A DNA stretch of 40,000 nucleotides from an uncultured Acidobacteriaceae bacterium. Its GTDB lineage: Bacteria > Acidobacteriota > Terriglobia > Terriglobales > Acidobacteriaceae. The notes under the pieces are model-generated. The model was not told the origin of the DNA, searched no databases, and was given only the letters and a program-made list of their open reading frames with translations. The translations under genes were made by a program, and so were the position numbers. Positions 15,748-40,000 of this stretch are shown here, one piece after another. The stretch covers positions 91,089-131,088 of the forward strand of contig CAWFLH010000008.1 in the NCBI GenBank assembly GCA_963816575.1, in the 5' to 3' direction. The first letter of the stretch is position 1; every line of letters starts with the position of its first letter.

Positions 15748-15776
15748 CCACGGCGTCAACCAGTAGGTTCAATCGG

Positions 15777-15801: not shown

Positions 15802-15843
15802 CATTATTTGCGGCGCAGCCCTGGCGCCGGGGATACTAAAGGC

Positions 15844-16866
15844 ATGCGTTTCCCGTGCCTAGTATATCTGTTGCTTGTAAGCCTGGCCTACGGGCAAGCT
15901 GCGCTGCCGGCCACGTCTGCCGCGAGTGACAAAACCTCCGAATCAGAAGTTGGGCCTGACGATGCGGTGATTACGCTGAACGGGTTCTGCGCTGATCCTG
16001 CGCAGGCGGGCGTGGCGTGCAAAACCATGATTACTCGAGCACAATTTGAGAAGCTTACTGACGCGCTGCAGCCGGGGATGTCGCTGTCACTTCAGCTCAA
16101 TGTGGCGAACGCTTATGCGCGAAATCTGAGAATGGCGGCGGCGGCGGAGAAACGCGGCCTTGATAAAACACCTGCATTCGAAGAAGAGATGCGCTATGCG
16201 CGGATGCAGTTCCTTGCGCAGGACTTGACCCGCACCCTGCAAGCGGAAGCCAGCAACATCACCGACGTCGATCTCGAAGACTATTACAAAAAGAACCAGT
16301 CCTCTTACGAGCAAGCTACACTGGCGCGGATCTTTGTTCCTCGCTCCAAGCAAAGCGAAGCTGCGCGCGGGGAACATGGGGACGTGCAGGCGAAGGCCGA
16401 TGAGGAAGCGATGATGAAGGTTGCTGTCGAACTTCGCGTCCGCGCGGTTAATGGGGAAGATCCTGACAAGTTGCAGATCGAGGCTTACACGGACGCCGGG
16501 ATTCCGCGCACCAACTCTGACACGAAGATGGGGAAGGTGCGGCGGGCTGCGCTGCCTCCGCGGCATGAAGCGGTCATGGACTTGAAGCCGGGAGAAGTTT
16601 CAGAAGTGATCTCCGATCCTGGTGGCGCCCATTTCATCTACAAAGTGATCGACAAGCAGACTTTGACGTTGGAAGAAGCAAAAATGGAGATCCGCGGGGA
16701 GATTTCGAGCCAGCGCTATCGGGACAGTATGAAGGGCTTTCAGGGCGATGTCGTGTTTAGCGATGCCTACTTTAATCCTCCGGGAAAGGCTGCTACGCCT
16801 CCGCAGCGAACTCGCACGGGGAGAAGAAAGACACCTTCGGCCCAGCAGGGCCAAGACCACGACTAG
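15844..16866 (+). CDS. Peptidyl-prolyl cis-trans isomerase, parvulin/SurA-PrsA-like, exported
   Basis: Track ORF 15808..16866, trimmed to ATG 15844, which gives the signal peptide MRFPCLVYLLLVSLAYGQA. It has a SurA-N-like helical region and a parvulin-like segment (LKPGEVSEVISDPGGAHFIYKV). Confidence 0.75.
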   Translation: MRFPCLVYLLLVSLAYGQAALPATSAASDKTSESEVGPDDAVITLNGFCADPAQAGVACKTMITRAQFEKLTDALQPGMSLSLQLNVANAYARNLRMAAAAEKRGLDKTPAFEEEMRYARMQFLAQDLTRTLQAEASNITDVDLEDYYKKNQSSYEQATLARIFVPRSKQSEAARGEHGDVQAKADEEAMMKVAVELRVRAVNGEDPDKLQIEAYTDAGIPRTNSDTKMGKVRRAALPPRHEAVMDLKPGEVSEVISDPGGAHFIYKVIDKQTLTLEEAKMEIRGEISSQRYRDSMKGFQGDVVFSDAYFNPPGKAATPPQRTRTGRRKTPSAQQGQDHD

Positions 16867-17094
16867 CTAGGCCACTGCAAATAAACCACTTACAGATGGG
16901 AACCTGGGATGGGTGGGCGGAGTCTATCTTCATATTAGAGAGCACATTAGAGTGTCTGCCGGTAACATGCGGCGGTGACCTCTAATCGGTGAACCAGGGG
17001 CGGGCAGGCGATTTTTCGGTTGGGGATGCGGCGGAGAATCCTATAATCAACCTGTAGTCACGCGCTAGGTGAAGTTGAGCGTGGGAGTGACCTC

Positions 17095-17829
17095 TTGGGA
17101 GATTTGGCGAGCGCAATTGGAGCACGGGCGCAGGAAGCGGCGATTGTCGCGGACCTGAAGGCGGGTTCGGAAGAGGCCTACGCCTGGCTGATCGGTGAAT
17201 TTCAGCGGCCGGTGTACGGGCTGGTGTACCGCATGGTGAGCGATCCGGCGGACGCGGCGGATACTACGCAGGACGTTTTTCTGAAAGTGTTCCGCGGGAT
17301 GAAGAGCTTTCATGGCGAGTCCAGCCTGAAGACGTGGATTTACCGGATTGCACTGCATGAGGCCGCGAACCGGAAGCGGTGGTGGTTCCGGCACAAGGCG
17401 CATGAGACTTCGATTGAGCCGGTGGAATCGGAGGGATTGGCGAACGGAGATGCAGCGATGCAAAACGCGCTGACTGACCGGAACGATTCGCCGTTCGATA
17501 GTGTGGCGCACCGGGAAGTGCAGAAGCGGGTGGATGCTGAGCTGCGGCAGGTGGCTGAGCCCTACCGGACGAGTTTGATTCTGCGCGATTTGGAAGAAAT
17601 GTCTTATGAAGAGATAGCGGAGGTTCTGCAGATTTCGCTGGGGACGGTGAAATCGAGAATCACGAGAGGGCGGCAGGCGTTGAAGCAGCGGCTGGCGCCT
17701 TACGTGCGCGAGGTGGGCGGAGAGTTGGGGCTCGCTGCGCCGGAGCAAGAAGAAGAGACGAGTTTGAGGTCCGAAAATTTGCAGGACCGGGTTGCTGGAG
17801 GGGGAAGAAGGGTCGAGGTGATGCCATGA
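17095..17829 (+). CDS. RNA polymerase sigma-70 factor, ECF subfamily
   Basis: TTG start at 17095 with GGGAG 8 nt upstream. Region 2 reads VYGLVYRMVSDPADAADTTQDVFLKVFRG...WIYRIALHEAANR. Region 4 reads SLILRDLEEMSYEEIAEVLQISLGTVKSRITRGRQAL. Confidence 0.9.
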   Translation: MGDLASAIGARAQEAAIVADLKAGSEEAYAWLIGEFQRPVYGLVYRMVSDPADAADTTQDVFLKVFRGMKSFHGESSLKTWIYRIALHEAANRKRWWFRHKAHETSIEPVESEGLANGDAAMQNALTDRNDSPFDSVAHREVQKRVDAELRQVAEPYRTSLILRDLEEMSYEEIAEVLQISLGTVKSRITRGRQALKQRLAPYVREVGGELGLAAPEQEEETSLRSENLQDRVAGGGRRVEVMP

Positions 17830-18542
17830 GGTATGTGGCCATGAAGCCGCTTTCGGCTAAGTCGACGATGAAATGCGGGGACGTGAAGGGATTGCTGTCT
17901 CCGTATCTGGACGGGGCAGTCACCGGGATCGAGATGCAGGGCTTGCAGGCACATCTGAACGGATGTGCAGCATGCATGAAGGAGTACCGGCTGCTGCGGC
18001 AGACGCAGCAACTGCTGACGAGCGTGGGGCGGGTGCAGGAGCCGGCAGACCTTGGGCTGAAGCTGCGTCTGGCCATTTCGCGGGAGGCGGCGGAAACGCG
18101 GCGTCCGCGATTTGAAGACTTGCGCATGCGCGTGGAGAATGCTTTGAACGCGTTTATGGTGCCGGCTACGGCGGGCCTGGTCTGCGCGTTGCTGATCTTT
18201 GGGTTAGTTACTGCGATCCTGGCGATGCCGGGAGAGGTGCAGGCGAACAATAGTCAAGACGTGCCGCTGGTGCTGAATACCGGTCCGGAGTTGGAGCAGA
18301 GCGTTTTTGGCACGACTCTGAGCGGGATGAATACGGACTCGCTGGTGATTGAAGCCTACGTCGACAAGAACGGGCGCGTGCAGGACTACAAGATTCTTTC
18401 TGATCCAGGGGAGTCGCAGGAACTGCTGCCGCAGGTGAAGCGGATGCTGATCTTTACGACGTTCCGTCCGGCGATGTCGATGGGACGGCCGATTTCGTCG
18501 CGGGCAGTGCTTTCGTTCTCTAGGATCAGCGTTCGGGGGTAG
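17826..18542 (+). CDS. Anti-sigma factor (zf-HC2) with one TM helix and a TonB_C-like periplasmic domain
   Basis: ATGA overlap with the sigma-factor stop (17826-17829). It has the zinc-finger pattern C-x27-H-x3-C-x2-C (CGDVKGLL...LQAHLNGCAAC) and a TM segment (VPATAGLVCALLIFGLVTAILAM). The C-terminus (IEAYVDKNGRVQDYKILSDPG...FRPAMSMGRPI) resembles a TonB C-terminal fold. Confidence 0.8.
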   Translation: MRYVAMKPLSAKSTMKCGDVKGLLSPYLDGAVTGIEMQGLQAHLNGCAACMKEYRLLRQTQQLLTSVGRVQEPADLGLKLRLAISREAAETRRPRFEDLRMRVENALNAFMVPATAGLVCALLIFGLVTAILAMPGEVQANNSQDVPLVLNTGPELEQSVFGTTLSGMNTDSLVIEAYVDKNGRVQDYKILSDPGESQELLPQVKRMLIFTTFRPAMSMGRPISSRAVLSFSRISVRG

Positions 18543-25701: not shown

Positions 25702-26043
25702 AATCTATCGTTATTGTACCCTTGGCGGTCCCGTTGGCAGCCGATCTAATGGCTGGCGCTTCCCCCCGGGGGGACACCGTTCAGAGAGCGGCCCGGGAGC
25801 CCCAACCCGCGGCGGTAGGACTGACCGTCCGGTTTGACGGGTAGGATGTGGCAACGGGAAAAACGGCTCCACCCCTCTTCTTGACGCATATCGCAGTTCA
25901 ATTGGATTTTGTGGATAGAATTGCGATGAGAATGAGTGGCTTTGCAGGTTTCCACGAAATTTCCGGCAACGTTTCCCCCAGCTTCACGACAATGCGCATG
26001 AATAGTGCCGACCTAGTAAACCTCCTGGAGAGACTCTCGGTTC

Positions 26044-27441
26044 TCAGAGGACTAGGAAGACAACGTTGCTGGAGAGTGTTCCGGTCGGCGTGGTCACTTC
26101 AACAGTACCCGTCGTTGCACTGCCTGGAACAGTCGCAGAAATTTCGGTAGGCGAAACAACCGTAAATGCTGCAACCTTGCCGTTGAAGGTTACTTTAGTG
26201 GCACCGTTTAGATCAGTCCCGAGAATAAAGATTTGTGCTCCGGTGTAAGCCGCAGCGGGCACTGTTTTCACGAAAGGAGCAAGGCCCAGAGACAACCTGA
26301 ACACTGTGCCGTATAGGTGCTGTCCATTAAACCCGTTCGTGGTTCCGTAAAAGCTGCCGTCGGTGCCCTGCACCAATCCCACTAACGGGTTCATACCGTC
26401 GGTCTTGGTGAACTCGTGCAGAACGGTAAACGTTCCACCCGGCGTAAGCTGGAAAATCATCCCGCAATTACTACCACTGCATTCTCCACCTGCGCCAATG
26501 CCCGGCGTTGTTCCATAGAAGTTCCCATCAGTACCTTGAATCAGCGCCGCATGGCTCGGCCCTCCGATTCCACTGAAGCTGTAAAGCGAGGTGAGTGAAC
26601 CCTCTGGCGTAATCTTATAGATCTGTCCCCGCCCATTCTTTCCTCCTCCGGAAGTTCCATAGAAGTTTCCATCTGTCGCTTGAATCAACGCGGAGGTGGG
26701 GCCTTCACCATCGGTAGAGTTGAAGACATCGAAAGTGGTCAGATGGCCGGCGGTACCAATTTTGAAGAAAGTACCGCAACCAATGTTGTCCTCACACAAT
26801 GGATTGGAGCCACCAGAGAGAGTTGTGCCATACAAAAATCGATCGGCGCCCTGAATAAGTCCCACGACCGGATCATTCCCGTCGGGGCAACCCTTAGTTT
26901 GGCAAAATGTGTGCAGCGTGCTAGCAGCACCTCCCGGCGTCAGCGCGAAGACCGCACCTCCGTATACGCCACCTGGGGGGGCCGTGCCGTAGAAGTTTCC
27001 ATCAACGTAATCCTGAATTAACCCTGCTGGAGATCCGATGCCGGTGCTCAGAGTGGTCAGAGAGCCGCTCTTGAGCTCGAAAAAGGTCGTATGGCTCCCG
27101 TCGGCGAAATAGGTGAGGCCGTAGAAGTCTCCATTGGCGGCCAGCACTAGCCCTTGAGGCCCTCCGCCGTCGGTACCGTCGAACTTAACCACGGTCGTGA
27201 GATTACCGCTAGGAGTAATCTTGAAAATCGTGCCCCAGCCGCCGACGCCCCCTATTCCGCCTCCCAGGGTCGTTCCATAGAAATTTCCGTCTGGTGCCTG
27301 GACCAGCGCGGTGGGGTAGGCTCCGTCGGTGATATCAAAGGTCGCCAGATTGGTGAACGTTTGTGCAGGCGATGATATCGCGGCGGCTACTACTGCAAAG
27401 AGGACGACGCAAGGAGTCCTTAGCGTACGAAACGGAGTCAT
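26044..27441 (-). CDS. Secreted GloVer tandem-repeat protein with a C-terminal IPT/TIG domain (paralog A)
   Basis: Track ORF 26044..27486, trimmed to ATG 27441 (GGAGGG upstream), which gives the signal peptide MTPFRTLRTPCVVLFAVVAAAISSPAQT. It has repeated [10 protein letters not shown]...GTIFKITPSG.LTT units. The C-terminus is VKTVPAAAYTGAQIFILGTDLNGATKVTFNGKVAAFTVVSPTEISATVPGSATTGTVEVTTPTGTLSSNVVFLVL. Confidence 0.82.
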   Translation of the reverse strand: MTPFRTLRTPCVVLFAVVAAAISSPAQTFTNLATFDITDGAYPTALVQAPDGNFYGTTLGGGIGGVGGWGTIFKITPSGNLTTVVKFDGTDGGGPQGLVLAANGDFYGLTYFADGSHTTFFELKSGSLTTLSTGIGSPAGLIQDYVDGNFYGTAPPGGVYGGAVFALTPGGAASTLHTFCQTKGCPDGNDPVVGLIQGADRFLYGTTLSGGSNPLCEDNIGCGTFFKIGTAGHLTTFDVFNSTDGEGPTSALIQATDGNFYGTSGGGKNGRGQIYKITPEGSLTSLYSFSGIGGPSHAALIQGTDGNFYGTTPGIGAGGECSGSNCGMIFQLTPGGTFTVLHEFTKTDGMNPLVGLVQGTDGSFYGTTNGFNGQHLYGTVFRLSLGLAPFVKTVPAAAYTGAQIFILGTDLNGATKVTFNGKVAAFTVVSPTEISATVPGSATTGTVEVTTPTGTLSSNVVFLVL

Positions 27442-27620
27442 AACTTCCCTCCAAAACATGAGCATCCAAACGTGTGCCGCACACAACTTTCAACATACGG
27501 CCAATCTAATCACCCTCTATGTGTCCCATCTATAGTGGATTACATAGGAGTGTGGCCACGCCAATATATTCTCGTCCATTGCGGAAACGGCGTCAAGGTG
27601 AAGGATTTTGCGATAGTCTC

Positions 27621-27636
27621 CTAATTTCCACGACTG
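27621..27636 (+). repeat. Copy 1 of a degenerate direct-repeat motif (CTAATTTCCACGACTG) at the left edge of the island
   Basis: It shares ATTT..ACGACTG with copy 3 (with a 2-nt CC insertion). It starts 10 nt after the paralog-homology breakpoint. Confidence 0.3.
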
Positions 27637-28109
27637 TTTCTCTGATCGTCAGGTTCAGCGAAACTAGCATCCGCAAGCCAACTAGCGAAGCATCAACTAC
27701 AACCAATTGTGGGGCAGTCGTTTATCATGCGCGAATGTGACTGCCCGCCGTATAACTTGACAGGCATCTCAGCATGTGCGCATGTGGCAGCCCAGCGTAT
27801 GTACAAAAAGCGGGGGGATGAAAAGAAGAAACGAGGGGGACTGGCATAGGAAACAATCCCCAACAAATTCTTGTCGCTGATTGAATGCTGCCCTTAACGC
27901 AACACCTTGGGAAAGCCGAAAACTTCCGACCTTGCCACACGCGGTTCGACGCACTTCATTCAGTGCGGCATGTCTACTTCAATGGACTATTCCGCCTTTC
28001 GTAACAAACTGATATTTTGTTAGTTTCCCACACCATAGTCTGACAACATTCCGACCATTGCCTTCCGTTCGTCGAAGCGCGCGCGAGTCTGGATTGAAGT
28101 TACTATAAG

Positions 28110-29882
28110 ATGAGGTACATCATGATCAAGCTTTTGTGTGTTATCGGCTTTCTCTTGCTTTCGCTGAAAGCAGTCGGCCAGATCAATCTGACCCAAGGCG
28201 AGTCCGTCGGCGTTGGTGCAAATGGAGTATTGCTTTCCCGCCCCAACGAGTTTCATTCTGCGGATTTCACGAGCCCGACGTTGAACAGCCTTCTTTCCAC
28301 CTGCCCTTCGACTCCAACTCCTTGTATCTGGGATGTCGAGCCTTCTGCGACCCAGATCACCGTTCCGACAACGGCCACCATTGGGTCGGCCACGCAGCCG
28401 GTGACGGTCGATTCCGGCCTGTCTTTTCTGTTAACGGGCACCGGTGGAGATGGCATCGATATCGCGCAGTGGGGTGCGCTGAAATGCCGAGGCAACAAAG
28501 GGCCAGCATCGCCGTCGGTTGCTGGCTGCGAAATCCAACAAGCGAACACTTCCATCCTCAACTCGCTCGTCAGCAATGCCGACCAGGGCGCCGTTCCTCC
28601 GCAAAGCGATTTCATGCTGGAGGGCTACGCTGCCATTGGCAGTGCCGCGGGGACAACGTGCGGCGCAGGCTGCGTTGCTCCGCGGCTCAGCTGTGGCGTG
28701 CTCTGCATCATCGCGGTCGAAGGCAAGGGTGTCATCCGCGATAGCGCGTTCGGGCCAGCGGTCGGAGAAGTGGGCATGAATTTTCAGGATGCAGGAAGCG
28801 GTAGTTCGGCTGACAACAATGCTCTACTTATCGAGAACGTCGAATCCTTCTGTAGTCTCTACGTTCACTGTTTGCCGCTGAATATTTGGGGCGCGACCGG
28901 AACTGGAACCGGAAATGGATCGAATTACCTATTTTCGGCGAGCTCTTTCGTCGATACGGGAAGTTCGAATCCAAACGGCATAACATCATTTGCCAGCGGC
29001 CAATGTCTCGATACACAAGATTGCCTGGTTAACCTCGACGGGCAAAGCGGTTCAGGCATGGGCAACAATGTGATCGGCAGCATTACCTTCGACACCACCT
29101 ACTTTGAAAGCTCGACCTCTATGAGCACGACGGGAAGCTTCATGGAGGCAAATAATGTTCGCGGCTTAGCACTGAACAACGTGCGCTTCGATGGGGGTGC
29201 CGTTCTCACCAATTGCCTGACGATTTCCGGGACAAGTTTTGGCGCAAGTTGGGTAACGGGTCGGGTCTCAGCAAACAAATGCGGTACGAACATCAATAAC
29301 GAGATCACCGGTTATTCCCAATCCAACAGCTCCGGCGGCGATCTCATGTATTACTATCCTGGAACCAACAGTGCTGGTTTCGTGATCGACGGAAAAGAAA
29401 TTCTCAACGGCAGCTTAACGATTAGCAATGCGGCGGGAACGTCTCAAACCGCATTGTCAGTATCCGCGTCGGGCGGGACGCTCGATCTCGGCAGTACCAA
29501 CGCGACCGTGAGCTCTGCCGGAGCTCTCAAGGCGACCAGTTTCACCGCAACGAATCTTCTGTGCAGCACTACGGCTCCCACCATTTCCTCCGGCTTTGGC
29601 AGTGCACCAAGCATCACCAACAACGGCAACTGCTCCTTCTCGATAAATGTCGGATCTGGCACCATTACGAACCCTGGAGTGCTCACCTTCCCAGCCGCAG
29701 CTCACGGATGGCATGTGCACTGCGACGACATCACGACCACGTCCGCTACTAACTTCATTACCAAACAAACTGGCGCCGTATCTACGACCAGCGTAACATT
29801 AACAACCTTTACCACCGCGGCTCTGACCACGGGCACATGGACAGCAAGCGACATTTTGGAATGCAGCGCGGTTGCCAATTAA
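28110..29882 (+). CDS. Secreted hypothetical protein (590 aa), Gly/Ser/Thr/Asn-rich, possibly beta-helix/fibre-like; cargo of the island
   Basis: Long ORF with the signal peptide MIKLLCVIGFLLLSLKAVGQ. The more likely start is ATG 28122, which has GAGG 6 nt upstream. It has repetitive N/G/S/T turns (ALNNVRFDGGAVLTNCLTISG, LNGSLTISNAAG). No confident family assignment. Confidence 0.6.
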   Translation: MRYIMIKLLCVIGFLLLSLKAVGQINLTQGESVGVGANGVLLSRPNEFHSADFTSPTLNSLLSTCPSTPTPCIWDVEPSATQITVPTTATIGSATQPVTVDSGLSFLLTGTGGDGIDIAQWGALKCRGNKGPASPSVAGCEIQQANTSILNSLVSNADQGAVPPQSDFMLEGYAAIGSAAGTTCGAGCVAPRLSCGVLCIIAVEGKGVIRDSAFGPAVGEVGMNFQDAGSGSSADNNALLIENVESFCSLYVHCLPLNIWGATGTGTGNGSNYLFSASSFVDTGSSNPNGITSFASGQCLDTQDCLVNLDGQSGSGMGNNVIGSITFDTTYFESSTSMSTTGSFMEANNVRGLALNNVRFDGGAVLTNCLTISGTSFGASWVTGRVSANKCGTNINNEITGYSQSNSSGGDLMYYYPGTNSAGFVIDGKEILNGSLTISNAAGTSQTALSVSASGGTLDLGSTNATVSSAGALKATSFTATNLLCSTTAPTISSGFGSAPSITNNGNCSFSINVGSGTITNPGVLTFPAAAHGWHVHCDDITTTSATNFITKQTGAVSTTSVTLTTFTTAALTTGTWTASDILECSAVAN

Positions 29883-29914
29883 AGTGAAGCATCAGTAACT
29901 CCGTTTTATGGTTG

Positions 29915-29946
29915 GAGAAACGAGGCTGATTCACCGATTGCGACTA
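29915..29946 (+). repeat. Copy 2 of the direct-repeat motif (GAGAAACGAGGCTGATTCACCGATTGCGACTA)
   Basis: The 21-nt core CTGATTCACCGATTGCGACTA matches copy 3 (CTGAATCACCATTTACGACTG) at 16/21 positions. A shared GAGAAA lies 2-5 nt upstream. It sits between the cargo gene and cas1. Confidence 0.35.
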
Positions 29947-30235
29947 CAGCTTTATTGGCCGGCGATATGGCTGACGGTCTGGTTGCTGGGGCTCTCGGTC
30001 GCAATCGTGGACGTGACTTTACGCCACAACTGGTGCGGGGAGATTAAGGCAGTCCTATGGCGAACCATGCTGGCGGCGATTGTCGCGAGTGAAACGGTAC
30101 TGGCCTCGTGTGGCGGAGGTAGGGCGTATCCATGGCGTGCGCCCAAGCCACCGCGTAGTGGTTGTATGCCTCCAGGCCGCCTAGCTTGTCGATTCGTTCA
30201 GTGAGAAATGGTTAATAGGTCGGGTTAGCTTTGAT

Positions 30236-31777
30236 TTAACTTTCATCGCCCGACACCCCAACCAGGGCCGCCAGCGTCTGCCAGTGCCTCGAATGCGGTC
30301 GGCGTCGGCCCGCACGGATGGCAACGGCATACGTCACAGAAACACCTAGCGCCGACATAATGACCGGGTTCGCGATTCCAGCCAGTAGCGGCTGAATCTT
30401 TCGCGAGTAGACTTCCTCGTTGAGCCAGGTTGGGAGGCTCGACGGCTGCCATTCTTTCTTCGCGAGGGCGTGCTGCCGCTGTGTCTGCGCCCGACGCGCC
30501 TTCGGACCGGGGGCTTGGCTAGCCACGCGTCCGATCTTGGCAATCTCCACAATTCGCTCACGAGCTGTCGTAGCGTCACACTCGGAACAATAACTTCGTC
30601 CAAACGAGATCGATGTCCCGCAAACGCGACAAATACTCTCCGGCTGTGGTGCGGTTTTGGTCGGTGGAAATGATGGATGCCCCTTCGCTTCGCGCTTGTT
30701 GCGCTGCGTAAGGCGTGTCGCGATCATCTTGGATGTGGAAGTTGGTTTTGACACGGAAGACCAAATCTCCTGCGCAACATATTCCGCGATCGGGGCCACT
30801 AATCTGCGCCACGTGTCCGAAGTCTCGCAGAGCTTGATTGCCAATGCTGAAGAAATGCGGCAGTTCCCATTGCGATCCTCCCAAAAGTCCGATTTACGAA
30901 GGGGCTCGCTCTGAAGCCAGTTCAAGACGAACGCGTCAACTCCGCCCGGCCTGCAAACTTCCATCAAATCGCAGGCGAGTGAGTCTCTGTTGGGCGTGTC
31001 CATGTGGAGAAAGCCCTGCCCCACGTCTAAGCCCATGGCAGTCGCGGCTAGTCTGGCTTCCGCCTCTAGCAGCGAGTAGACGAAATTTAACAAGGCGTTA
31101 CTGGGTGAGGCCGCTAGCCGTGGACTGTGTGTAATGGGAGAGATTCGCGACCCAAACTTTTTCCAGTGGCCAGGAACGAGCTTTTCATCCTTGCGGGGCC
31201 AGAGGATTGGAATATCCGCCCACGAATGCCAATACAATTTGGCAGCCTGTGCCTCAATGAGGGTAACCCTCTCAACGCTCTCGGCGCTCGGTAAAGTGCT
31301 TCTGAATCGAGCAATTGCGTCCGCCGTCGAAGGATCGTGCAGCATGTCGCGCACTAGTAACTCCTGCCCGGCGAGTTTCTGCGAGATGAGTTCTTTAGAA
31401 ATCTTGAGCGCCGTCCCGTTGCCGAGTGCGAGCGCTTGCGCCCTGCGGAGTTTGGAATCCGACGGAGTGACCGGGCCGGTGACGACGAGCACCTTGCCTC
31501 TGCGATCAAGCATCAAGAATGATGCGCCCGCGTCAGAGATCCAGCGGAGCGCCTCAAGGGTGACGAAACCGTCACTTCCGATTAGCACTAATCTTTTCAG
31601 ACCATGATTCACGCGGGGTAGGCGGATCGTTCGGCGCTCGTCTGCGATTCCGTCGTGCAGAAGCAGATGACCGGCGTCGACTTTGATGCGAATTCCCCAT
31701 CCATTCAAAACGAGGACGCCCGATTTGCGGATGGAGTGCGAGTGCGATAGGTTTGGCGAAGCCGTCATGGAGCTCAT
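30236..31777 (-). CDS. cas1: Cas1 homolog (solo Cas1 / putative casposase) with a C-terminal Zn-ribbon and basic tail
   Basis: 513 aa. The N-terminal beta domain reads VLVLNGWGIRIKVDAGHLLLHDG...LVLIGSDGFVTLEALRWISDAGASFLMLDRRGK. The catalytic helical domain has LIEAQAAKLYW and SPSNALLNFVYSLLEAEARLAATAMGLDVGQGFLHMDTPNRDSLACDLMEVCRP (Cas1 E...H...D/E signature). The C-terminal extension has CRVCGTSISFGRSYCSEC and an Arg/Lys-rich helical tail. No cas2 or CRISPR array is nearby. Confidence 0.85.
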   Translation of the reverse strand: MSSMTASPNLSHSHSIRKSGVLVLNGWGIRIKVDAGHLLLHDGIADERRTIRLPRVNHGLKRLVLIGSDGFVTLEALRWISDAGASFLMLDRRGKVLVVTGPVTPSDSKLRRAQALALGNGTALKISKELISQKLAGQELLVRDMLHDPSTADAIARFRSTLPSAESVERVTLIEAQAAKLYWHSWADIPILWPRKDEKLVPGHWKKFGSRISPITHSPRLAASPSNALLNFVYSLLEAEARLAATAMGLDVGQGFLHMDTPNRDSLACDLMEVCRPGGVDAFVLNWLQSEPLRKSDFWEDRNGNCRISSALAIKLCETSDTWRRLVAPIAEYVAQEIWSSVSKPTSTSKMIATRLTQRNKREAKGHPSFPPTKTAPQPESICRVCGTSISFGRSYCSECDATTARERIVEIAKIGRVASQAPGPKARRAQTQRQHALAKKEWQPSSLPTWLNEEVYSRKIQPLLAGIANPVIMSALGVSVTYAVAIRAGRRRPHSRHWQTLAALVGVSGDES

Positions 31778-32214
31778 ATCTCCTCAGCGGTCAGGGCTGT
31801 TTGCCTGCTCTAACAGGTGGGCAGCCCGCTTAACTTAAGTTTTCTATATTCTATTACTTACAAGCGCATCCGACAATGCGAAACTGTGCGCAGGAATGTG
31901 GATAAAAGCAAACTGTGGAAAACTGATGAATACTTTGGCTCGCCTGGGGCATCGAAGTTAGTAGCCTCTTTGCGCGAGTAGGGAGGACTATAGGACAGGT
32001 GAGAACCGGTCCCGAAGTGCAGTGCGGATGAATGTTACGTCCATGTAGTTACCACGACGAGTAGACCACGCCATTCCGCGCAATACCAGCCGGAGAAACA
32101 TCGTGGCGAGGACGCGAAAGAACTGGTAGGGCGGCTGAGACTCCAATATTTGCACTAGTCCCGAGCAAAAGTTCAAGGGCAAGATGACAATTTTTCCTTC
32201 GGGAGAAGTGTCAA

Positions 32215-32466
32215 ATGCCTGCCCTTCGAGTCGCCAATGCCGTCGCGCCAACCCAACCAACCGTAAGCGACAAGGTACTCCTCACCCGTGAGGAGTGTGC
32301 CGACATTCTCCGAATCCATATTCGGACCCTCGATGCGCTGCTCAAGGACGGAATTCTCCGTTTTAAGAGGGTAGGTAAACCACTCCGTGGCCGCGTCCTC
32401 GTACCGCGTGTAGAAATCGAGCGATTCCTTCAGGTGGACCAACCTGCCAAACGGCGGGTGAGGTGA
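32215..32466 (+). CDS. Helix-turn-helix DNA-binding protein (excisionase/MerR-like HTH_17 type)
   Basis: GGGAGAAG lies 6 nt upstream of the ATG. The motif is LLTREECADILRIHIRTLDALLKDGILRFKRVG. It is the first gene of the HTH-unknown-HNH-polB operon and is divergent from cas1. Confidence 0.65.
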   Translation: MPALRVANAVAPTQPTVSDKVLLTREECADILRIHIRTLDALLKDGILRFKRVGKPLRGRVLVPRVEIERFLQVDQPAKRRVR

Positions 32467-32469
32467 CCT

Positions 32470-32997
32470 ATGGCGCAGAAAAAGCTGCACTGGATCGCCT
32501 CAAAGGGCTACCGCGCACCTCGTCCATCCTCTTTAACCGAGGGACAACTAAAGACGCGCGCCGATGTACTGGCTGCTCACTCTGATATGTTGCGCGACCG
32601 CAACCTGACGGCATCCCAAGCCGCTTGGGATAACGGCGTCACGATCCGAGATTTCTGGAAATACATACCCAGAGCATTCACCAGGAACTCAAGTGGACGT
32701 ATTCGCGCTATAGCAGACCGCTACGTGAGAAGGCTGGAGATTCCCGGACGCGATGGTCCCGTCTTAGTCACCGTCAGAGGGTCCAAAGCTAAAGGTCAAC
32801 TTGCACGATTCCGCAATGATGTCTTCAGCTTTCTCGGTGGGGATCGTTCTGCGCTTGATAAATGGAAAGGCGTAACGATCCAGGGTCATGAGTTGCTGAC
32901 GGACCCCCACATTATTCGAACGCTGGGCGAGCAAGGCAATCTCCCTGAACATTTCGGCAGCGAGCAAGTTGTTCCGTACTCCGGCGGGGCCGCATGA
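32470..32997 (+). CDS. Hypothetical protein (175 aa) in the polB operon
   Basis: It starts 3 nt after the HTH stop, with GAGGTG upstream. Its stop overlaps the next start (ATGA at 32994-32997). No family was recognised. Confidence 0.55.
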   Translation: MAQKKLHWIASKGYRAPRPSSLTEGQLKTRADVLAAHSDMLRDRNLTASQAAWDNGVTIRDFWKYIPRAFTRNSSGRIRAIADRYVRRLEIPGRDGPVLVTVRGSKAKGQLARFRNDVFSFLGGDRSALDKWKGVTIQGHELLTDPHIIRTLGEQGNLPEHFGSEQVVPYSGGAA

Positions 32998-33302
32998 GAC
33001 GGTGCAATCTCTGTGGCACTACTCATGAGGTAACCCAACATCATGTCGGGGGACAACGTTTCATTGCGTGGTTCACGATGAGTCTCTGCGCCAAATGCCA
33101 AGTAATTTTCCACGCAAGACAACGTGCCGCTGGGATCAATTTGCGTTTCACTCCGGACGCCAGGATCAGATTGATTCGCGCATTGAAGATGACAGTACTC
33201 TTCATGTGGTTACTGCTCGACATGCTGGAAAGTGAAATTGGCTCGGAGATCAATGAAGCTAAGGCACTGCGTCAAGAATCTAACTCCGAGGATGGGAAAT
33301 GA
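32994..33302 (+). CDS. HNH-like endonuclease / Zn-finger protein (102 aa)
   Basis: CNLCG-x6-TQHHVGG-x12-LCAKCQVIFH resembles the CxxC...HH...CxxC/H HNH arrangement. There are ATGA overlaps on both sides (32994 and 33299). Confidence 0.5.
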   Translation: MRRCNLCGTTHEVTQHHVGGQRFIAWFTMSLCAKCQVIFHARQRAAGINLRFTPDARIRLIRALKMTVLFMWLLLDMLESEIGSEINEAKALRQESNSEDGK

Positions 33303-36300
33303 TTGAGACACACGATCTCTTCTTACGTGCGCTTGCGGTACCTATAGAGAAAAAGAAAAAGAAGAAAACCGCCAACACCGAGGACGATAACAATGTGCTG
33401 GACGAACCAACATGGCCGGATACAGTCCTGGCGTTCGATAGTGAGAGCCGGGTCACCGTAGACCAATCGCTCACGCTTAGCGTATGGCAGCGTTGCAGGC
33501 TGGTCGGGGGCGTGTATGAAGTAATCGAAGAGGGCATATTTCATGCCGGCGATCTGCCTGAAAGAGATTGCAAAGTCCTCAGAGCATATATGGAGACTGC
33601 GGTCTCCGATGTGCCAACCTTTCCACCTCGTTTTCCCCTCTACTCGCGTTCGCAGTTCATGAAAAAGGTATTTTGGCCCGCCCTTAAGAAAAACAGTTCG
33701 ATGGTTGTGGGTTTTAATCTCGGATACGATCTTTCCCGAATTGCCCTCGACTGGAAAGAAGGAAACAAAGGTGAATGGTCGCTCGTGCTGATGAAGTATG
33801 CCGATGGCAACGAGAACTGCAACTATCCACGCGTCCTGATAACACCTATTGATAGCAAGAAACAGATAATCAAGCTATGGCGACCGTGGAAAAAGAATCA
33901 ACACGAGTGGAAAGACTTAGGCAAAAAGATCCATTTCCTCGATCTTCGGACTTTGCTCTGGGCGCTTTACAACAAATCGCACTCGCTTCGGTCCGCCTGT
34001 GACAACAAACGCGGCCCCTTCAAAGAGCAGAACCTACCGCCAAAAGATGACCATGATCCCACTGGGGAAGTAACGCCAGATGAAATTGAGCACTGCCGGC
34101 AGGATGTCCGCTGCACTGTAGCACTCCTGAACGCTTGTAAGTTGGAATTCGATAAGCACTCCGATATCGATCTGAAGCCGTGGAATGCATACTCACCCGC
34201 GAGTATCGCCAAAGCTTACCTCGCGGCAATGGGCATAAAAAGGCCCTCTGTTAAGTTCAAAGCGCCGGACAAAAAGTTGGCCTCTTGGATTCAGTCCTAT
34301 TTTGGCGGGCGTTCGGAGTGCCGAATACGTCACGAGGTTGTTCCCGTAGTTCCGGTAGATTTCACCTCCGAGTATCCTTCTTGCTGCGCAAACATGGGCC
34401 TATTCAAATTTCTCACCGCTAAAAGTTTGAAGTTTGTCGATGACACAGCAAACATACGGCAGTTTGTCGCGAATATCACTCACGAACAGTGTTTTAGGCG
34501 TGATACATGGCACGATCTGAACTTTGTGGCCCGCTTAATCCCTGACGGAGACATCCTGCCCGTCAGGACTGTTTACGACGGCGTAAGCCATAATATCGGC
34601 AACAATTATTTATCTTCGAATCCTTCCCACCCAGAAGCCATTTATGTTGCAGGGCCCGATCTTGTCGCTGCAGTGATCCAGCAACCGGGAAAGATTCCCA
34701 ACATTCAACAAGCATTCAGGATCGTCCCCTGTGGCAAGCAGCCTGGAATGCGAGCCGTAAAACTTCGGGGAAAGGTTCTGATCGACCCTAACGATGATTC
34801 TGCTGACCTATTCACGAAAATCATTGAGGAGCGTAAACGCAATAAGAATGATCCCGATCTCTACTATTGGCTCAAGATTCTCGCCAATTCGATTTACGGA
34901 TTTTTCGTGGAACTCATTCCGGAGCACTTCAAACAACCGAAAAAAGTGATGGTGTTTTCTGGCGATGAGAGCTTTCCTGATTCCTCAAGAGTGATTGAAA
35001 GGCGAGGAAAATGGTTTGCGCCGTACTTGGCAACGCTCATCACATCCGCTGGAAGGCTCCTCTTGGCCATGCTGGAGGTGGAAGTGAAACGAGCAAGGGG
35101 CGCGTATCTATACTGCGATACCGACAGTCTAGCAGTTGTCGCATCGAAAAAAGGAGGCCCACTCCGCATTCCCGGAGCGCAAGGCGGGCGTATTTTGACC
35201 TGCGATGAGGTTGACGCAATCACCGCTAAATTCCAGGCACTCAATCCATACGATCCCGATACGGTGCCGGACCTCCTGAATCTCACGGACGACAATTACG
35301 TGTGCAAATGTTCGCATGAACTTAACGAGCATGACGACGCCGGAGTTTGTGAGGTGCATCGATGCCGCTGCATGGCAAGGAAAAAAGTGCGGCGGCAGCA
35401 ACTGTGGGGGATGGGCGTAGCCGCCAAACGATACGCTCTGTTTGAAAAACTACTCGCCAACAACGGGAAACTTGTCGATATTAGAATTGTCAATCCGAAA
35501 GCGCACGGCATCGGCTTCCTCTATCCGCCGAAAGACAATCCCAAGAATTGGAAAAATGACGCGCCACTGTGGGTTTTCGAGATGTGGGACTACATCGTGC
35601 GGGGATTTCTGGGATTACCGCGCAAACTACCCGCTTGGGCTTCGCGTCAACAAATGATGCGTTTCTCCGTATCCACTTGGAACGTCCTTAAGATGCTGGG
35701 CATGTGGGAGAGCGCACGTCCTAACAATTTCATGTTCATGGTAATGACCTCCGAGACATTTTCGTTTGACTTTGACTTTGACAATAAACCAAGCAAAAAG
35801 CCAATGGTAATCGTGCCGTTTTCGAGCAAACAAGATGAGTGGAACAAACTCGTAGGGATTGATATTCACAACAAGAACCGGCGCGGGACATACCGGCGTT
35901 ATCCGCTGGGCGATCCCTATTTCCACCCATTCACCTACGGGCACATGATGGAGGAATACACCCGGCACCCTGAGGCTAAGAGCCTGGGCTCGGATGGGAA
36001 GCCCTGCACAGCAGAAACTCGCGGGTTGCTGCAACGGGCGCACATTACCGCAGGACAAGTCCGCTATATCGACAAAGAGACCAGCTCAATGTGGGCGCAT
36101 AACGACGATCTCAGCGTGATAACAGATAACGATGAAGTCGGATTTAGGGTCGTCGAGTACGGGAAAAGCCGCAAAATTGCGCTTCTCGACTCATTGAAAT
36201 GTGAGATCCAGAGAACTAAATTACAACGCGAATTGCGACGCAGAGGAATTGGGCAGCACACGATTGAAAAAGCGCTGCACGCACATATACGCGTAAATAC

Positions 36301-36367
36301 CTACAAGAAAATCGTCGCCGCAATTGCAGAATTCAAAGAGGAAAAACAGAAACCAGAGAAATTCTGA
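33299..36367 (+). CDS. polB: Family B DNA polymerase with an intact 3'-5' exonuclease domain
   Basis: 1022 aa. ExoI is VLAFDSES, ExoII is VVGFNLGYDLSRI and ExoIII is EIEHCRQDVRCTVALL. Motif A is VPVDFTSEYPS (DxxSLYPS-like), motif B is LKILANSIYGFF (KxxxNSxYG), motif C is YLYCDTDSL (YxDTDS) and the KxY motif is VAAKRYALF. Confidence 0.9.
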   Translation: MIETHDLFLRALAVPIEKKKKKKTANTEDDNNVLDEPTWPDTVLAFDSESRVTVDQSLTLSVWQRCRLVGGVYEVIEEGIFHAGDLPERDCKVLRAYMETAVSDVPTFPPRFPLYSRSQFMKKVFWPALKKNSSMVVGFNLGYDLSRIALDWKEGNKGEWSLVLMKYADGNENCNYPRVLITPIDSKKQIIKLWRPWKKNQHEWKDLGKKIHFLDLRTLLWALYNKSHSLRSACDNKRGPFKEQNLPPKDDHDPTGEVTPDEIEHCRQDVRCTVALLNACKLEFDKHSDIDLKPWNAYSPASIAKAYLAAMGIKRPSVKFKAPDKKLASWIQSYFGGRSECRIRHEVVPVVPVDFTSEYPSCCANMGLFKFLTAKSLKFVDDTANIRQFVANITHEQCFRRDTWHDLNFVARLIPDGDILPVRTVYDGVSHNIGNNYLSSNPSHPEAIYVAGPDLVAAVIQQPGKIPNIQQAFRIVPCGKQPGMRAVKLRGKVLIDPNDDSADLFTKIIEERKRNKNDPDLYYWLKILANSIYGFFVELIPEHFKQPKKVMVFSGDESFPDSSRVIERRGKWFAPYLATLITSAGRLLLAMLEVEVKRARGAYLYCDTDSLAVVASKKGGPLRIPGAQGGRILTCDEVDAITAKFQALNPYDPDTVPDLLNLTDDNYVCKCSHELNEHDDAGVCEVHRCRCMARKKVRRQQLWGMGVAAKRYALFEKLLANNGKLVDIRIVNPKAHGIGFLYPPKDNPKNWKNDAPLWVFEMWDYIVRGFLGLPRKLPAWASRQQMMRFSVSTWNVLKMLGMWESARPNNFMFMVMTSETFSFDFDFDNKPSKKPMVIVPFSSKQDEWNKLVGIDIHNKNRRGTYRRYPLGDPYFHPFTYGHMMEEYTRHPEAKSLGSDGKPCTAETRGLLQRAHITAGQVRYIDKETSSMWAHNDDLSVITDNDEVGFRVVEYGKSRKIALLDSLKCEIQRTKLQRELRRRGIGQHTIEKALHAHIRVNTYKKIVAAIAEFKEEKQKPEKF

Positions 36368-36384
36368 ATCACCATTTACGACTG
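36356..36384 (+). repeat. Copy 3 of the direct-repeat motif (GAGAAATTCTGAATCACCATTTACGACTG), overlapping the polB stop codon
   Basis: See copies 1 and 2. The TGA at 36365-36367 lies inside the motif. Confidence 0.35.
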
Positions 36385-36499
36385 AGCAAGCTATCGGATC
36401 AATCTATGCAAGCCCATCGCTAAGGCAGCGACAACGAGCGCCACGGCTGCCAGGACGAACCGCGTCGGACCGACCAGCGCGGTGCGGCTTGCGAAAGAC

Positions 36500-37979
36500 T
36501 CAGAGGACTCGGAAGGGGACGTTGCTCGACAGCGTTCCGCCGGGTGTAACTACCCGCACCGTGCCCGTGGTGGCATTACCGGGGACAGTGGCCTGAATCT
36601 CAGTCGGCGACACGACAGTGAACACTGCGGTCTTGCCATTGAAGGTGACGCTGGTCGCGCCCGTCAGATTCGTCCCCAGGATTAGCACTTGGGTATGCGT
36701 GTAAGCGCCAGCAGGTACGGTCTTCACGAAAGGAGCAAGCCCCATCGACAACTGGAACACAGTGCCGTAGAGGTGCTGTCCGACGAAGCCGTTGGTCGTC
36801 CCGTAAATATTTCCATCGGTTCCCTGTACCAAAGCGGCGGCAGGGTTCATCCCGTCCGTCTTGTCGAAGCTATGCAGTGTGGTGAGCGTGCCATCGGGCG
36901 TTACCTGAAAGATGCTGCCGCAATTGTTGCCACTGCAGGCGCCTTTGTAACCGATCCCTGAGGTCGTCCCGTAAAAATTTCCGTCGGTAGCCTGGATCAG
37001 CGCGGTGAGGGGATTTCCACCGTCTGTGCCATCAAAGGTGTGAAGAGTGGTCAGCGCACCCGCAGGCGTCATTTTGAAGATCGTGCCGCAATAATATGGC
37101 GATGTATACAGGGCCGGGCAGGCCAAGTCCCTCCATTCTCGGTCGTTCCGTAGAAGTTCCCGTCGGTGCCCAAGGTCAGTCCGCCCATGGGGTCAGTACC
37201 ATCCGTGAGTAAATTGAATTGGTGGAGAATGTTTAGAGCGCCTTCGGTACCGATTTTGAAGACAACCCCAGCATATGCTGGGCCGCCACCACTAGTTGTT
37301 GTACCGTAGAGGACTCCGTTGTTGGCCTGCACCAGCTGAGCCGCAGGGAAAATTCCATCGGCGCATTTTGCTAAATTGCAAAAGTTGTATAAGACAGTCA
37401 GAGTGCCGCTTGGGCTGATTTTGAATACCGTGCCGCAGCCAGGGTAGTCCTCACACTTCTTCGTGGGCGAGCCGCCGTAGGGCGCTGTCCCATAAAAATT
37501 TCCGTCAATCGTGTCTTGCATTAGGGGCGGGAAAATAGGCATAGAAGTGCCGCTGCCGCCCAGGCCGGAGGAGTTGCTGTAGAGGGTTGAGAACGCGCCT
37601 TCGGGAGTAATCGCGTAGACCGTGGTATGCGGAGACTCGTAGCCCATCGTCACGCCGTAAAGGTTCCCGTTTGCAGCGAGTATTAGTCCGGCCTGTGGCC
37701 ACGATCCGTCAGTGCCCACAAACTCATGCACGGTTGTGAACGTGCCTGCCGGAGTGATCTTGAAAACCGTCCCGCAGCCGTTGTAACAGATTCTCTGCCG
37801 CCCTCCCATGTCGTGCCGTAGAAGTTGCCATCGAGTCCCTGGACAAGAGCCCCGTAGGGAAAGCTGCCGTCGCTGTTTTCAAAAGTGTGCAGAGTAGTGA
37901 AGGTTTGCGCCTGCGAGGCAATCCCTGTCGCCCACCACAGCGCGAATATCAACCATGCCGTCTTCCATCTGCAAGCCAT
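36500..37979 (-). pseudogene. GloVer tandem-repeat / IPT-TIG exoprotein, paralog B, disrupted by at least two frameshifts
   Basis: Three overlapping track ORFs in three frames (37683..38138, 37069..37809, 36500..37126) together encode one GloVer protein. It has a signal peptide ([26 protein letters not shown], from ATG 37979). The frame changes at about 37,790-37,810 (...[11 protein letters not shown] | ...[15 protein letters not shown]) and at about 37,100-37,130 (...GNFYGTTENGG | ...LACPALYTSPYYCGTIFKMTPAG). The C-terminus is closely similar to paralog A. Confidence 0.75.
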
Positions 37980-38306
37980 AAAAACATTCCTCTCACGATT
38001 CGAAAAACATAGCCCTACGCTATATAGCATAGGCGCGAGGGAACGTGGCGTCAACGGGAAGGATTTTGCATCATCAATACGCAGCAATGGGCATTGCGAG
38101 AGCGAAAATTTAACGCTCATACCGGAACGTCTGCACAAGTCCTAAGTTAGGTCAATTTTCGCTCCATATCTTCATCTTCGTTCAGTGTTGCCGGGGCATT
38201 ACAAAATTAAGAACACAACCAATTTATTACAAATCACTCCTCGTAACTATGGTAGTGTGATTCGAACCTTCGACTGTAACTGTGGACGAAGAGGGAGGTG
38301 CTATAT

Positions 38307-40000
38307 ATGGGACCTCAGGTACATGAGACTCTTGCTGCGCGATGGGATTCAAACTATAAATCACAATATAAGATCAAGAGGTTTTTTGTCTTCTTGTTTA
38401 GCCTAGCCGTTTTTTGTATTCTCACTAACGCATTAGCCCAAACAGCTGGGGTCTGGGGATAAGTGGTCCCCGGCCCTGGATTGACGTTACCGGCCCGAAT
38501 TGTGGCTCCTCGGCTGGGTTCTGTGGCGCAGATCCCTGCAGGTGTGAATCCTTCTGCGACTGCAATCTCAAATCTTTTGGGCCTGGCATGTGCAAGTTTA
38601 AGAGTTGGCTCTTTTTGCCTCCTGGGACCTGTACAGGCCGGATCTGGTAGGTACCCACGGGGTACCTGCACCCTTTTGCAGGTCTCGTTGCTTGCGGCGG
38701 AGTACACATCGTCAAGAGCGTCGGCACTACAAGCTCATTCCCCAGCAACAATGGGTCGTTTGTCATTACCAGTTCGCAATTCACATTGAAAAATATCGAG
38801 TATGACGGAAACAACGGCAGCTTCAGCGGCCCATGCATCACAGTGACCAGCCCGAGCGCTACGCCGCCCCAGATTTCCGACATCGTGATTGAGGATAATT
38901 ACATTCACAACTGCGACGGGCAATCAATTACGCTGACCTCCGGGCTTAGCTACACTTACTCCGGCCCGCTGCGCACGCATATCCGACGCAACCGCATTGT
39001 TGGCGGCGCTAGCGAACAGCCGATTCTGATCCAAGGCTCCGTCAACGATATCGACATCATCGACAACTTTATTGACGGAACCAACTGCACCAGCTGCGGC
39101 AGCACACTCGGGACGATCAATGCAGAAGCGCAGGGTGTGGGTGCGATTTCCTGTCCCGCGAACGGCCTCAGCACCGGCGCGTGCATCACGAACCTACGGA
39201 TCAAGCACAACAAGATCTACTGCACAACGGCATGGTGTATTCAAGCAGGCAGCTTCGGCGGCAACCAGATGACCGGTCTGCAGATCGAAGACAACGATCT
39301 GGAACTGTTTCAATCGACGACGCAGGGATTCGTATCCGTCGTAGCCGCGGGCGCCCAGATAACCGGTAATACGATGAACAATCACTACACCGATCTCGGC
39401 TACAACCACACGTTCTTCGCAATCGAAAATGCCGAGTCGACCGGAACGGTGATTACAAATAACATCTGCTACTGCGAAAACTCAGGTGCGGGGGGATTCC
39501 TAACGATAGACGGCGGCAAAGATGTGATCGCAACCGGAAACCACGTCTACGGCTTCGGTGAAGCTTCGGGCATCGGGATTACGATGGACAACAGCACTTT
39601 GGTGCCCGCAACGATCGCGACGATCGCGGAGACAGGCTATGTCGTCACGGTCACCATGTCGGGAACCTTCCCCACTCAGATACAGCCAGGGGTCGCGGTT
39701 GCTATTTGCACGAACGCCACAATCACCGCAATGGCCTGTCAGTCATCCGCCGGTACCGCCTACGGTCCGACAACCGTCATCAACCAGAATTACTCCCAAA
39801 GCTCAAAGACGTTTTCTTATCTCAGTCCTACTACTGGACTTTCTTGCTCGTCTTTGTGCGGCGGCGTTGCTCTCGCTACAGTGTACAACCGAGTGAGCCA
39901 GAACACGATTCAGATGCCGCTCGGAAATGCGCTCACGGCGTCGATCTACGCATTGCAGTACCGAAACGTCACAGACGCCAGCTACATCTACGGCAACACC
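38307..40000 (+). pseudogene. Right-handed beta-helix repeat exoprotein, apparently disrupted (frameshift plus in-frame TAG), 3' partial at the window end
   Basis: This ORF is absent from the ORF track because it has no stop in the window. ATG 38307 (AGGGAGGTG upstream) opens a 51-aa frame with a signal peptide (KRFFVFLFSLAVFCILTNALAQTAG) and ends at TAA 38460-38462. The body continues in another frame from 38429 (..PWIDVTGP...LFLPPGTC..), hits TAG at 38648-38650, and is then open from 38651 to 40000. It has beta-helix turns (IVIEDNYIHNCDG, IRRNRIVGG, DIIDNFIDG, LRIKHNKIYC, LQIEDNDLE, VITNNICYCEN). Confidence 0.5.

Follow-up and report, generated by a model that had tools for sequence, protein, structure and literature searches.

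We analysed a 40-kb stretch of DNA from an uncultured Acidobacteriaceae bacterium (contig CAWFLH010000008.1; the whole stretch of 40,000 nucleotides is called the window). On its sequence, we conclude that it very probably carries most of a genuine casposon of family 3 type, about 15 kb long, in an acidobacterial (Terriglobia, Sulfotelmatobacter-like) chromosome. An initial annotation of the window had proposed a casposon with Cas1 as its integrase. This proposal is upheld by the terminal inverted repeats (TIRs) and 14-bp target-site duplications (TSDs) of related elements, by their occurrence at different sites, by empty sites, and by a Cas1 of the family 3 type. Casposons are self-replicating transposons that insert by means of a Cas1 enzyme. 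They are divided into four recognised families, of which family 3 is bacterial.

The core of the element consists of a casposase gene and a divergent operon of overlapping genes, which encode helix-turn-helix (HTH), 175-aa, 102-aa Cys/His and family B DNA polymerase (PolB) proteins:

30236..31777 (−): casposase; Cas1 core at about residues 20-330, C4 zinc ribbon (C383, C386, C397, C400) and C-terminal HTH-like end
31778..32214 (no strand): divergent intergenic region, 437 bp, separating the casposase gene from the HTH-PolB operon; presumed from its position to hold the promoters
32215..32466 (+): small HTH protein, 83 aa (HTH_17 / excisionase-MerR-like); PF12728 E=3.9e-7, TIGR01764 E=2.7e-5
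32470..32997 (+): conserved core protein, 175 aa; in 38 of 38 intact cores
32994..33302 (+): Cys/His protein, 102 aa, HNH-like, putatively zinc-binding; in 34 of 38 cores
33299..36367 (+): family B DNA polymerase, 1022 aa, C-terminal tail helical; PF03175 E=2.9e-7, partial

The initial annotation had described this arrangement, and most of its gene-level claims hold. The Cas1 open reading frame (ORF; 513 aa) is divergent from the operon across the 437-bp spacer and matches PF01867 (E=1.5e-38) and TIGR00287 (E=1.8e-30). Residues E175, H258, D270 and E273 are invariant among 36 aligned homologues, and the active site is therefore intact. Its closest match in the PDB is the Methanosarcina mazei casposase (6OPM, 150 bits), with Archaeoglobus fulgidus Cas1 close behind (141 bits). 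PADLOC, Pfam and NCBIfam all tag the protein as a Cas1 of CRISPR systems, and public annotations name its homologues "CRISPR-associated endonuclease Cas1". The claim that the polymerase has all exonuclease and polymerase motifs also stands: the Exo, A, B, C and KxY residues (D47/E49, D144, D354/Y359, K526-N530-Y533-G534, D607-T608-D609 and K710-R711-Y712) are invariant in 23 homologues, down to approximately 50% identity. As had been noted, no repeat-spacer array was found in the 40 kb, and no further cas gene (including cas2 and effector genes) among the ORFs scanned; the window also contains no tRNA gene. The reported drop in G+C was likewise seen, from about 0.59 on the left to 0.49-0.55 from approximately 25.5-26 kb onward.

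The remaining core proteins were assigned with varying strength, and the Pfam matches that the initial annotation had asked to check were significant for Cas1, partial for PolB (PF03175 only) and not significant for the HNH protein. An AlphaFold2 model of PolB (predicted local distance difference test score, pLDDT, 57) matches vaccinia E9, E. coli Pol II, herpes simplex virus polymerase and pol alpha with a Foldseek probability of 1.0, and the PolB profile has a weak match to pol alpha. The phi29 polymerase is absent from both the structure and the profile matches, and a PDB search with the single PolB sequence returned chance matches only. The predicted fold is consistent with the published description of family 2/3 casposon polymerases. 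The 102-aa protein had been called HNH-like. Its CxxC...HH...C motif is indeed conserved (C4, C7, H17 and C32 are invariant; consensus CxxCGS..ExHHxGGRNH..PLCxxHHxxFH), its profile has a weak match (E=0.004) to a PDB protein deposited as "nicking endonuclease", and its gene occupies the position of the "HNH, ZBD (C4)" gene of HenMar-C1, but it has no significant Pfam match. The HTH_17 gene lies where HenMar-C1 and NitAL212-C1 have their MerR-like HTH gene. The 175-aa protein has no Pfam match and a weak profile match to the N-terminal region of the IS5376 transposase (E=0.38); by the size and position of its gene, which are those of the ~150-aa "HTH" gene of family 2/3 casposons, it is probably a second casposon HTH protein.

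The left end of the element is marked by two adjoining features:

25825..25838 (no strand): left copy of the presumed 14-bp TSD, CCGTCCGGTTTGAC (other strand GTCAAACCGGACGG); abuts the TIR on the outside and carries the GTCAA target motif
25839..25878 (+): left TIR, 40 nt, GGGTAGGATGTGGCAACGGGAAAAACGGCTCCACCCCTCT; points inward, and the G+C drop starts here

This 40-mer occurs once in the window and is identical to both TIRs of a related locus, L001, in which a 14,774-bp element is bounded by perfect 40-nt TIRs (925-964 and 15659-15698) and the TSD TTTCTGGGTTTGAC. Window positions 30250-40000 are 98.7% identical to L001, and loci L001 to L006 come from organisms with the same element as the window. 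A TIR profile from 36 elements finds position 25839 as its sole match in the element region (a weak match lies at 3247, E=0.47), and blastn matches the window TIR to seven loci. By collinearity with L001, the right TIR of the window copy should lie at about 40805-40844, approximately 0.8 kb past the window end, so that we place the element from 25839 to beyond 40000, with an estimated length of about 15 kb. Two claims of the initial annotation fall with these ends: that there are no obvious TIRs, and that the element interrupts a pair of tandem paralogs, which are two GloVer/TIG genes inside the element (26044-27486 and 36500-37981). Its boundaries of 27612-36425 cover the core but miss the true left end.

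We identified the ends of such elements from a large set of related loci. More than 3000 Cas1 clusters and 1246 PolB clusters came out of the homologue searches, and many of them share contigs; the named ones belong to Candidatus Sulfotelmatobacter and other Acidobacteriota. When a single genome of each species was scanned, 79 distinct loci emerged, almost all of them titled Acidobacteriota, with two or three copies in some genomes. Most of them share the order Cas1 (−), HTH (where present), 175-aa, 102-aa, PolB (+). The core is conserved in approximately 70 Acidobacteriota loci while the flanking gene families vary, and clustering of the ORFs within 7 kb at 38 loci recovered the five core families alone as conserved. 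Between non-orthologous copies, nucleotide homology breaks off at about 30 nt or less from the stop codons of Cas1 and PolB. A scan for TIRs up to 1.5 kb from these stop codons (39 loci) gave nothing above shuffled controls.

The TIRs sit 1-8 kb further out than this near-gene zone, and they were revealed by two loci from different metagenome-assembled genomes, L044 and L045. These share a 15.8-kb block that is 99.95% identical and has unrelated flanks. The block ends in imperfect TIRs of about 65 nt starting GGGGTATTACGCATTGAGGGGATTTTGCTACAC, and is flanked on both sides by TAGAGCAGTTTGAC in one genome and by GTCAAACGGGCGAA in the other. A search of the whole flanks then found inverted repeats enclosing the core plus 1-8 kb of variable genes per side in 37 loci. 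The TIR pairs are mostly 35-140 nt with 92-100% identity (the weakest accepted is 31 nt at 90%), and the bounded elements measure 8.1-18.1 kb (median 14.3 kb). Directly outside the TIRs is a 14-bp direct duplication in 37 of 37 cases, perfect in 36 and with a single mismatch in one. Positions 1-5 of the duplication read G-T-C-A-A in 34-37 of the 37 cases, and the core occurs in both orientations relative to this motif. The first ~37 nt of the TIR are conserved across subfamilies (GGG(G)TA-N10-GACGG(C/G)AAAA-N6-CACCCC).

At 19 loci, another TIR in the opposite orientation lies next to the element, and exactly 14 bp separate its end from the element's TIR; these are tandem arrays that share one target copy. 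Loci L042 and L045 lie side by side on a single contig and have the same 14-mer between them. The 39 loci checked yielded two tRNA genes, neither of them at an element end. Second, often truncated cores (PolB/Cas1 fragments, 26-52% identity) occur within 5-10 kb of the first at L009, L026, L048, L059, L062/L072 and L082. Insertions of 1.1-1.5 kb interrupt several PolB genes, and both arrays and decay are common. Two contigs, L052 (10,550 bp) and L055 (11,949 bp), consist of the element only, with 100% identical TIRs (139 and 98 nt) no more than 15 nt from either end; they could be a free linear form, or the result of assembly breaks at repeats.

A 30-nt motif (GGTCAATGAGTGTAA...) near the gene ends, which resembles a short TIR, was rejected, as it marks the ends of a separate IS110-like element or miniature inverted-repeat transposable element; in L001 it flanks a Transposase_20 gene. 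A repeat separate from the casposon, with ends GGTCAATGAGTGTAAaCGCGATtTT, occurs in inverted pairs 0.3-1.4 kb apart; the L001 pair (11523-12558) flanks a Transposase_20 (IS110-family) gene, at the exact point where homology with the window stops. The repeat is found on the Cas1 side at L009 (~6334), L034 (~6762) and L072 (~6770), and on the PolB side at L020, L021, L028, L048 and L053 (~12885-12961). In about nine independent loci it lies within approximately 30 nt of the Cas1 or PolB stop codon, where by a rough estimate fewer than one would be expected by chance.

Because the PDB scores of 6OPM and A. fulgidus Cas1 are close, we used the Cas1 reference alignment of Krupovic et al. 2014 (PMC4046053, Additional file 2) for family placement, together with a profile built from 36 homologues of the window Cas1. 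With this profile, family 3 casposases score 406, 331, 282, 238 and 202 bits, family 2 casposases 125-179 bits, family 1 casposases 82-85 bits, and the CRISPR Cas1 proteins of the reference set at most 88 bits. In a neighbour-joining (NJ) tree, family 3 Cas1 proteins are intermixed with the relatives of the window protein, in a joint clade with 61 of 100 bootstraps. Both results answer the phylogenetic check suggested in the initial annotation, and they place the window Cas1 with family 3 casposases rather than with CRISPR Cas1. A search of the full library gave 1037 Cas1 clusters (at 50% identity) with E<1e-30. Among the best 150 matches that are not obviously truncated, nearly all have a length of about 500 aa, and their alignments extend through the zinc ribbon and the HTH-like tail at the C terminus. 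The number of clusters and their full-length architecture together imply that family 3 is far larger than the published handful of approximately five elements (PMC4046053).

The published members of family 3 (NitAL212-C1, HenMar-C1, StrAlb-C1 and AceAut-C1) are, like the window element, from bacterial hosts, and the resemblance extends to their anatomy. HenMar-C1 and NitAL212-C1 have the order Cas1, MerR-like HTH, HTH, HNH/zinc-binding domain (ZBD), PolB(-HTH) (PMC4046053), and the window has the same order, with the second HTH gene in the ~150-175-aa size range. NitAL212-C1, from Nitrosomonas sp. AL212, is 14,414 bp long, with a 36-nt TIR (GGGGTATGTTAACTTCTCCCAAACGCCGTACACTT, which starts GGGGTATG and ends GTACAC), a 14-bp TSD and an intergenic target (PMC4046053); its TIR, TSD, length and target match those of the Acidobacteriota elements. 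An intergenic, non-tRNA target is also reported for HenMar-C1 and AceAut-C1 (PMC4046053). Besides the host phylum, there are three differences: (i) the zinc ribbon is C-terminal to the Cas1 core in the window but N-terminal in NitAL212; (ii) the cargo, which includes GloVer/TIG secreted proteins, a RES toxin and others, is unlike that of published family 3 elements; and (iii) the Acidobacteriota set has a GTCAA motif, leader-like flanks, several specific sites and frequent tandem arrays across dozens of copies. No casposon of Acidobacteriota is described in the literature we searched, in which papers naming both casposons and Acidobacteria were irrelevant. The novelty put forward in the initial annotation is thus reduced to the host phylum, as far as the searched literature goes: family 3 itself, a bacterial host, the gene order and the intergenic non-tRNA target, which is the family 3 rule, were known already, and the supposed lack of TIRs does not apply.

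Several comparisons show that these elements move. The window casposon is 98.6% identical to that of locus L088, whereas the host DNA near the casposon in both (window 14105-18542 and L088 18614-23069, inverted) is 82% identical. The window and L088 TSDs differ, and the two are therefore independent insertions of a recently shared element. The shared host block encodes a DUF1565 beta-helix protein and adjacent ORFs, and in L088 it includes sigma-70 and zf-HC2 anti-sigma genes. At L088 ~15750-15890, compared with L086 15012-17643, the call for a 733-aa cargo gene covers only 246 aa, and the part homologous to the window stops about 1 kb sooner than it does in L086; these two features suggest that L088 has a deletion, which may have taken its right TIR with it.

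The elements insert at specific intergenic sites that have GTCAA and a leader-like sequence upstream of it in common; both orientations occur, and tandem insertions are frequent. At eight loci, the leader side of the target corresponds to sequence upstream of valS, which is divergent, with conserved GATCTTACAGG..AGAAAAGAAGG directly before GTCAAAC. Other TIR subfamilies lie upstream of other genes. One of these has a product starting MPKRTFQPN, which from reading its sequence we take to be ribosomal protein L34 (rpmH); the product of another starts, as we presume from a similar reading, like a Ser/Thr kinase. A TATAAT-like or TTACAG-like element lies approximately 20-25 nt upstream of GTCAA, depending on the subfamily site (e.g., L025, L029 and L074; L007, L015, L057 and L073); it may be either a promoter or a recognition element for the casposase or an HTH protein. 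Among metagenome contigs scanned for the valS leader, 118 sites were usable, and at least 54 of these have TIR-like sequence right after the 14-mer. At other valS sites (e.g., L100, L112, L192, L197, L203 and L204) the 14-mer is followed by host sequence, and L100 is an empty site because it aligns across the junction with the joined flanks of L044. The initial annotation had looked to an empty site as a check, and there is one for the valS target of the relatives, but none was found for the window's own target: a 28-nt probe over the left junction and target had no match in the metagenome contigs, neither as an empty site nor as a second occupied copy.

Between the TIRs and the core are further genes, which we regard as cargo because the element spans from 25839 past 40000:

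26044..27486 (−): secreted GloVer-repeat / TIG-domain protein, 480 aa; TIGR03803 E=6e-71, PF01833; sits between TIR and core
28110..29882 (+): 590-aa protein; no Pfam or NCBIfam match
36500..37981 (−): GloVer-repeat / TIG protein, 493 aa in L001; split in the window by two 1-bp deletions
38610..40000 (+): gene of unknown function, whose product has 633-733 aa in relatives; truncated by the end of the window, with an open frame at 38651-40000; called at the collinear position in L086 and L087

Exact-sequence look-ups returned no record for the window Cas1, the 590-aa protein or the left GloVer protein. The left arm of the window (25839-30250) is unique; L001 instead has P4-cII-like, 314-aa and RES toxin genes and an IS110-like insertion. 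Over the last 200 nt of cas1, identity to L001 falls from 100% to approximately 85%, a decay which suggests recombination between related elements. In the right arm, the 1-bp deletions relative to L001 fall in C and T homopolymer runs at 37129 and 37791 and divide the GloVer/TIG gene into two ORFs; this gene is either a pseudogene or affected by homopolymer sequencing errors. Outside the element and unrelated to it, an Rfam Acido-Lenti-1 small RNA motif at 13330-13376 (+) scores 44.2 bits against a gathering score of 37, which fits an acidobacterial host.

The elements described here share features with three other kinds of system. Family 2 casposons (Aciduliprofundum boonei AciBoo-C1 and M. 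mazei) likewise have a ~14-bp TSD, a C-terminal HTH in the casposase, a leader-plus-TSD target, tandem arrays and a five-gene core, but they are archaeal and mostly inserted at the 3' ends of tRNA genes, whereas the window-type elements have no tRNA at their ends. CRISPR-Cas adaptation by Cas1-Cas2 shares the Cas1 catalytic core, leader-adjacent integration, a short duplication of fixed length and arrays with repeats of equal length. In contrast, the elements here have no Cas2, short-spacer array or effector genes, their inserts are 8-18-kb self-replicating elements, and their Cas1 falls outside the CRISPR clades of the reference set; neither cas2 nor a repeat-spacer array is present in the window or among the genes called around its close relatives. 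Pipolins integrate into tRNA genes by means of a tyrosine recombinase, and their polymerase is without the canonical KxY motif. These self-synthesizing PolB elements (Redrejo-Rodriguez et al. 2017, PMC5695915) are also integrated, bacterial and equipped with their own family B polymerase. Unlike pipolins, the elements here have Cas1 as the only conserved integrase candidate, TIR ends with 14-bp TSDs, an invariant KxY motif (KRY) and no tRNA at their ends.

We propose a mechanism in which the anatomy is that observed above and the chemistry is modelled on published family 1 and 2 casposases; the casposase biochemistry that we found in the literature concerns archaeal enzymes of these families. 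The casposase would bind the TIR ends, helped by its zinc ribbon and HTH tail, and join the 3' OH ends to the two target strands 14 bp apart. Gap filling or repair would then duplicate the 14-mer and thereby regenerate the target, so that arrays can form. The element would be copied by its own PolB, while the small HTH proteins and the HNH-like protein may assist in the recognition and processing of ends and target. The arms between the TIRs and the core would serve as exchangeable cargo, here secreted GloVer/TIG proteins.

We considered several other explanations for these data. That the window gene is a CRISPR adaptation gene, with an array and other cas genes just outside the window, would agree with the CRISPR Cas1 label given by Pfam, NCBIfam, PADLOC and the public annotations, and with the near-equal scores of A. 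fulgidus Cas1 (141 bits) and the M. mazei casposase (150 bits). We give this idea almost no credence, as the 40 kb hold no array, cas2 or effector, the gene lies inside a TIR/TSD-bounded element in 37 relatives, the profile gives family 3 members 202-406 bits and CRISPR Cas1 at most 88, and the Cas1 core carries a C-terminal zinc ribbon and HTH extension. A different PolB mobile element (a pipolin, or a protein-primed linear plasmid or virus) with cas1 as cargo is suggested by the sole Pfam match of the polymerase, PF03175, which is of the protein-primed / organellar-viral type, and by the element-only contigs L052 and L055 with TIRs at both ends. This is highly improbable: conservation is confined to the five core genes and includes no recombinase of the tyrosine or serine type and no capsid or packaging gene, K710, R711 and Y712 (KxY) are invariant, the polymerase matches are of the E9, Pol II and pol alpha types and not phi29, and a 14-bp TSD is a casposase signature (PMC8464041). 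It is also very unlikely that we are looking at a domesticated, immobile Cas1-PolB module (for example, in defence or repair) that is inherited vertically. Non-orthologous copies do differ by at least 15% in nucleotide sequence, many copies are degraded or interrupted, and PolB searches of the IMG/VR, plasmid and phage collections gave no match; however, many elements have perfect TIRs and perfect 14-bp TSDs, a 99.95%-identical element occupies two sites in two genomes, the casposon is 98.6% identical where the host flanks are 82% identical, and the same site is found both occupied and empty, with flanking genes that are not conserved.

More weight goes to the view that, within a real lineage of casposons, the copy in the window is dead or chimeric, a remnant made immobile by the loss of an end or by scrambling through recombination; we still regard this as unlikely. 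The left arm is wholly unlike that of relatives 98.7% identical elsewhere, identity decays toward a break at the cas1 3' end, the relatives have their IS110-like insertion at exactly this break, one cargo gene has two frameshifts, and the right end is outside view. Against it, the five core ORFs are intact with conserved catalytic residues, the left TIR is a perfect copy, the frameshifts are in homopolymer runs and could be sequencing errors, and the distance of about 15.0 kb from the left TIR to the predicted right TIR is typical of the bounded elements (8.1-18.1 kb, median 14.3). Some of the same observations count against a genuine family 3 casposon in the window. Its right TIR and second TSD copy are outside the window, so that its integrity depends on collinearity with L001; the window copy is recombinant and might be rearranged, as seen in its unique left arm and the decay at the cas1 end; and one cargo gene is frameshifted twice. 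The HNH identity of the 102-aa protein is weak, the structural model of PolB is mediocre (pLDDT 57), and in a simple NJ tree the bootstrap support for a grouping with family 3 is 61%. We nonetheless favour a family 3 casposon.

Casposons are the proposed ancestors of the CRISPR adaptation machinery. Taking the loci together, we consider it reasonably likely that they form a lineage of family 3 casposons in Acidobacteriota that is undescribed, very abundant and recently active, and that uses a leader-like sequence and a GTCAA-initiated 14-bp target at a few intergenic sites and forms arrays with exact 14-bp repeats. If true, this lineage would be a bacterial, sequence-rich natural system for testing how Cas1 leader/repeat recognition arose from casposon integration. 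The dozens of intact family 3 elements to which the window leads, with perfect TIRs and 14-bp TSDs, a clear target motif, both orientations, arrays, and occupied and empty sites, make target recognition by a bacterial casposase directly testable. They also show that, in soil Acidobacteriota, the annotation "CRISPR-associated Cas1" has been given to thousands of casposases, which matters where cas1 counts are used as a proxy for the prevalence of CRISPR in soil.

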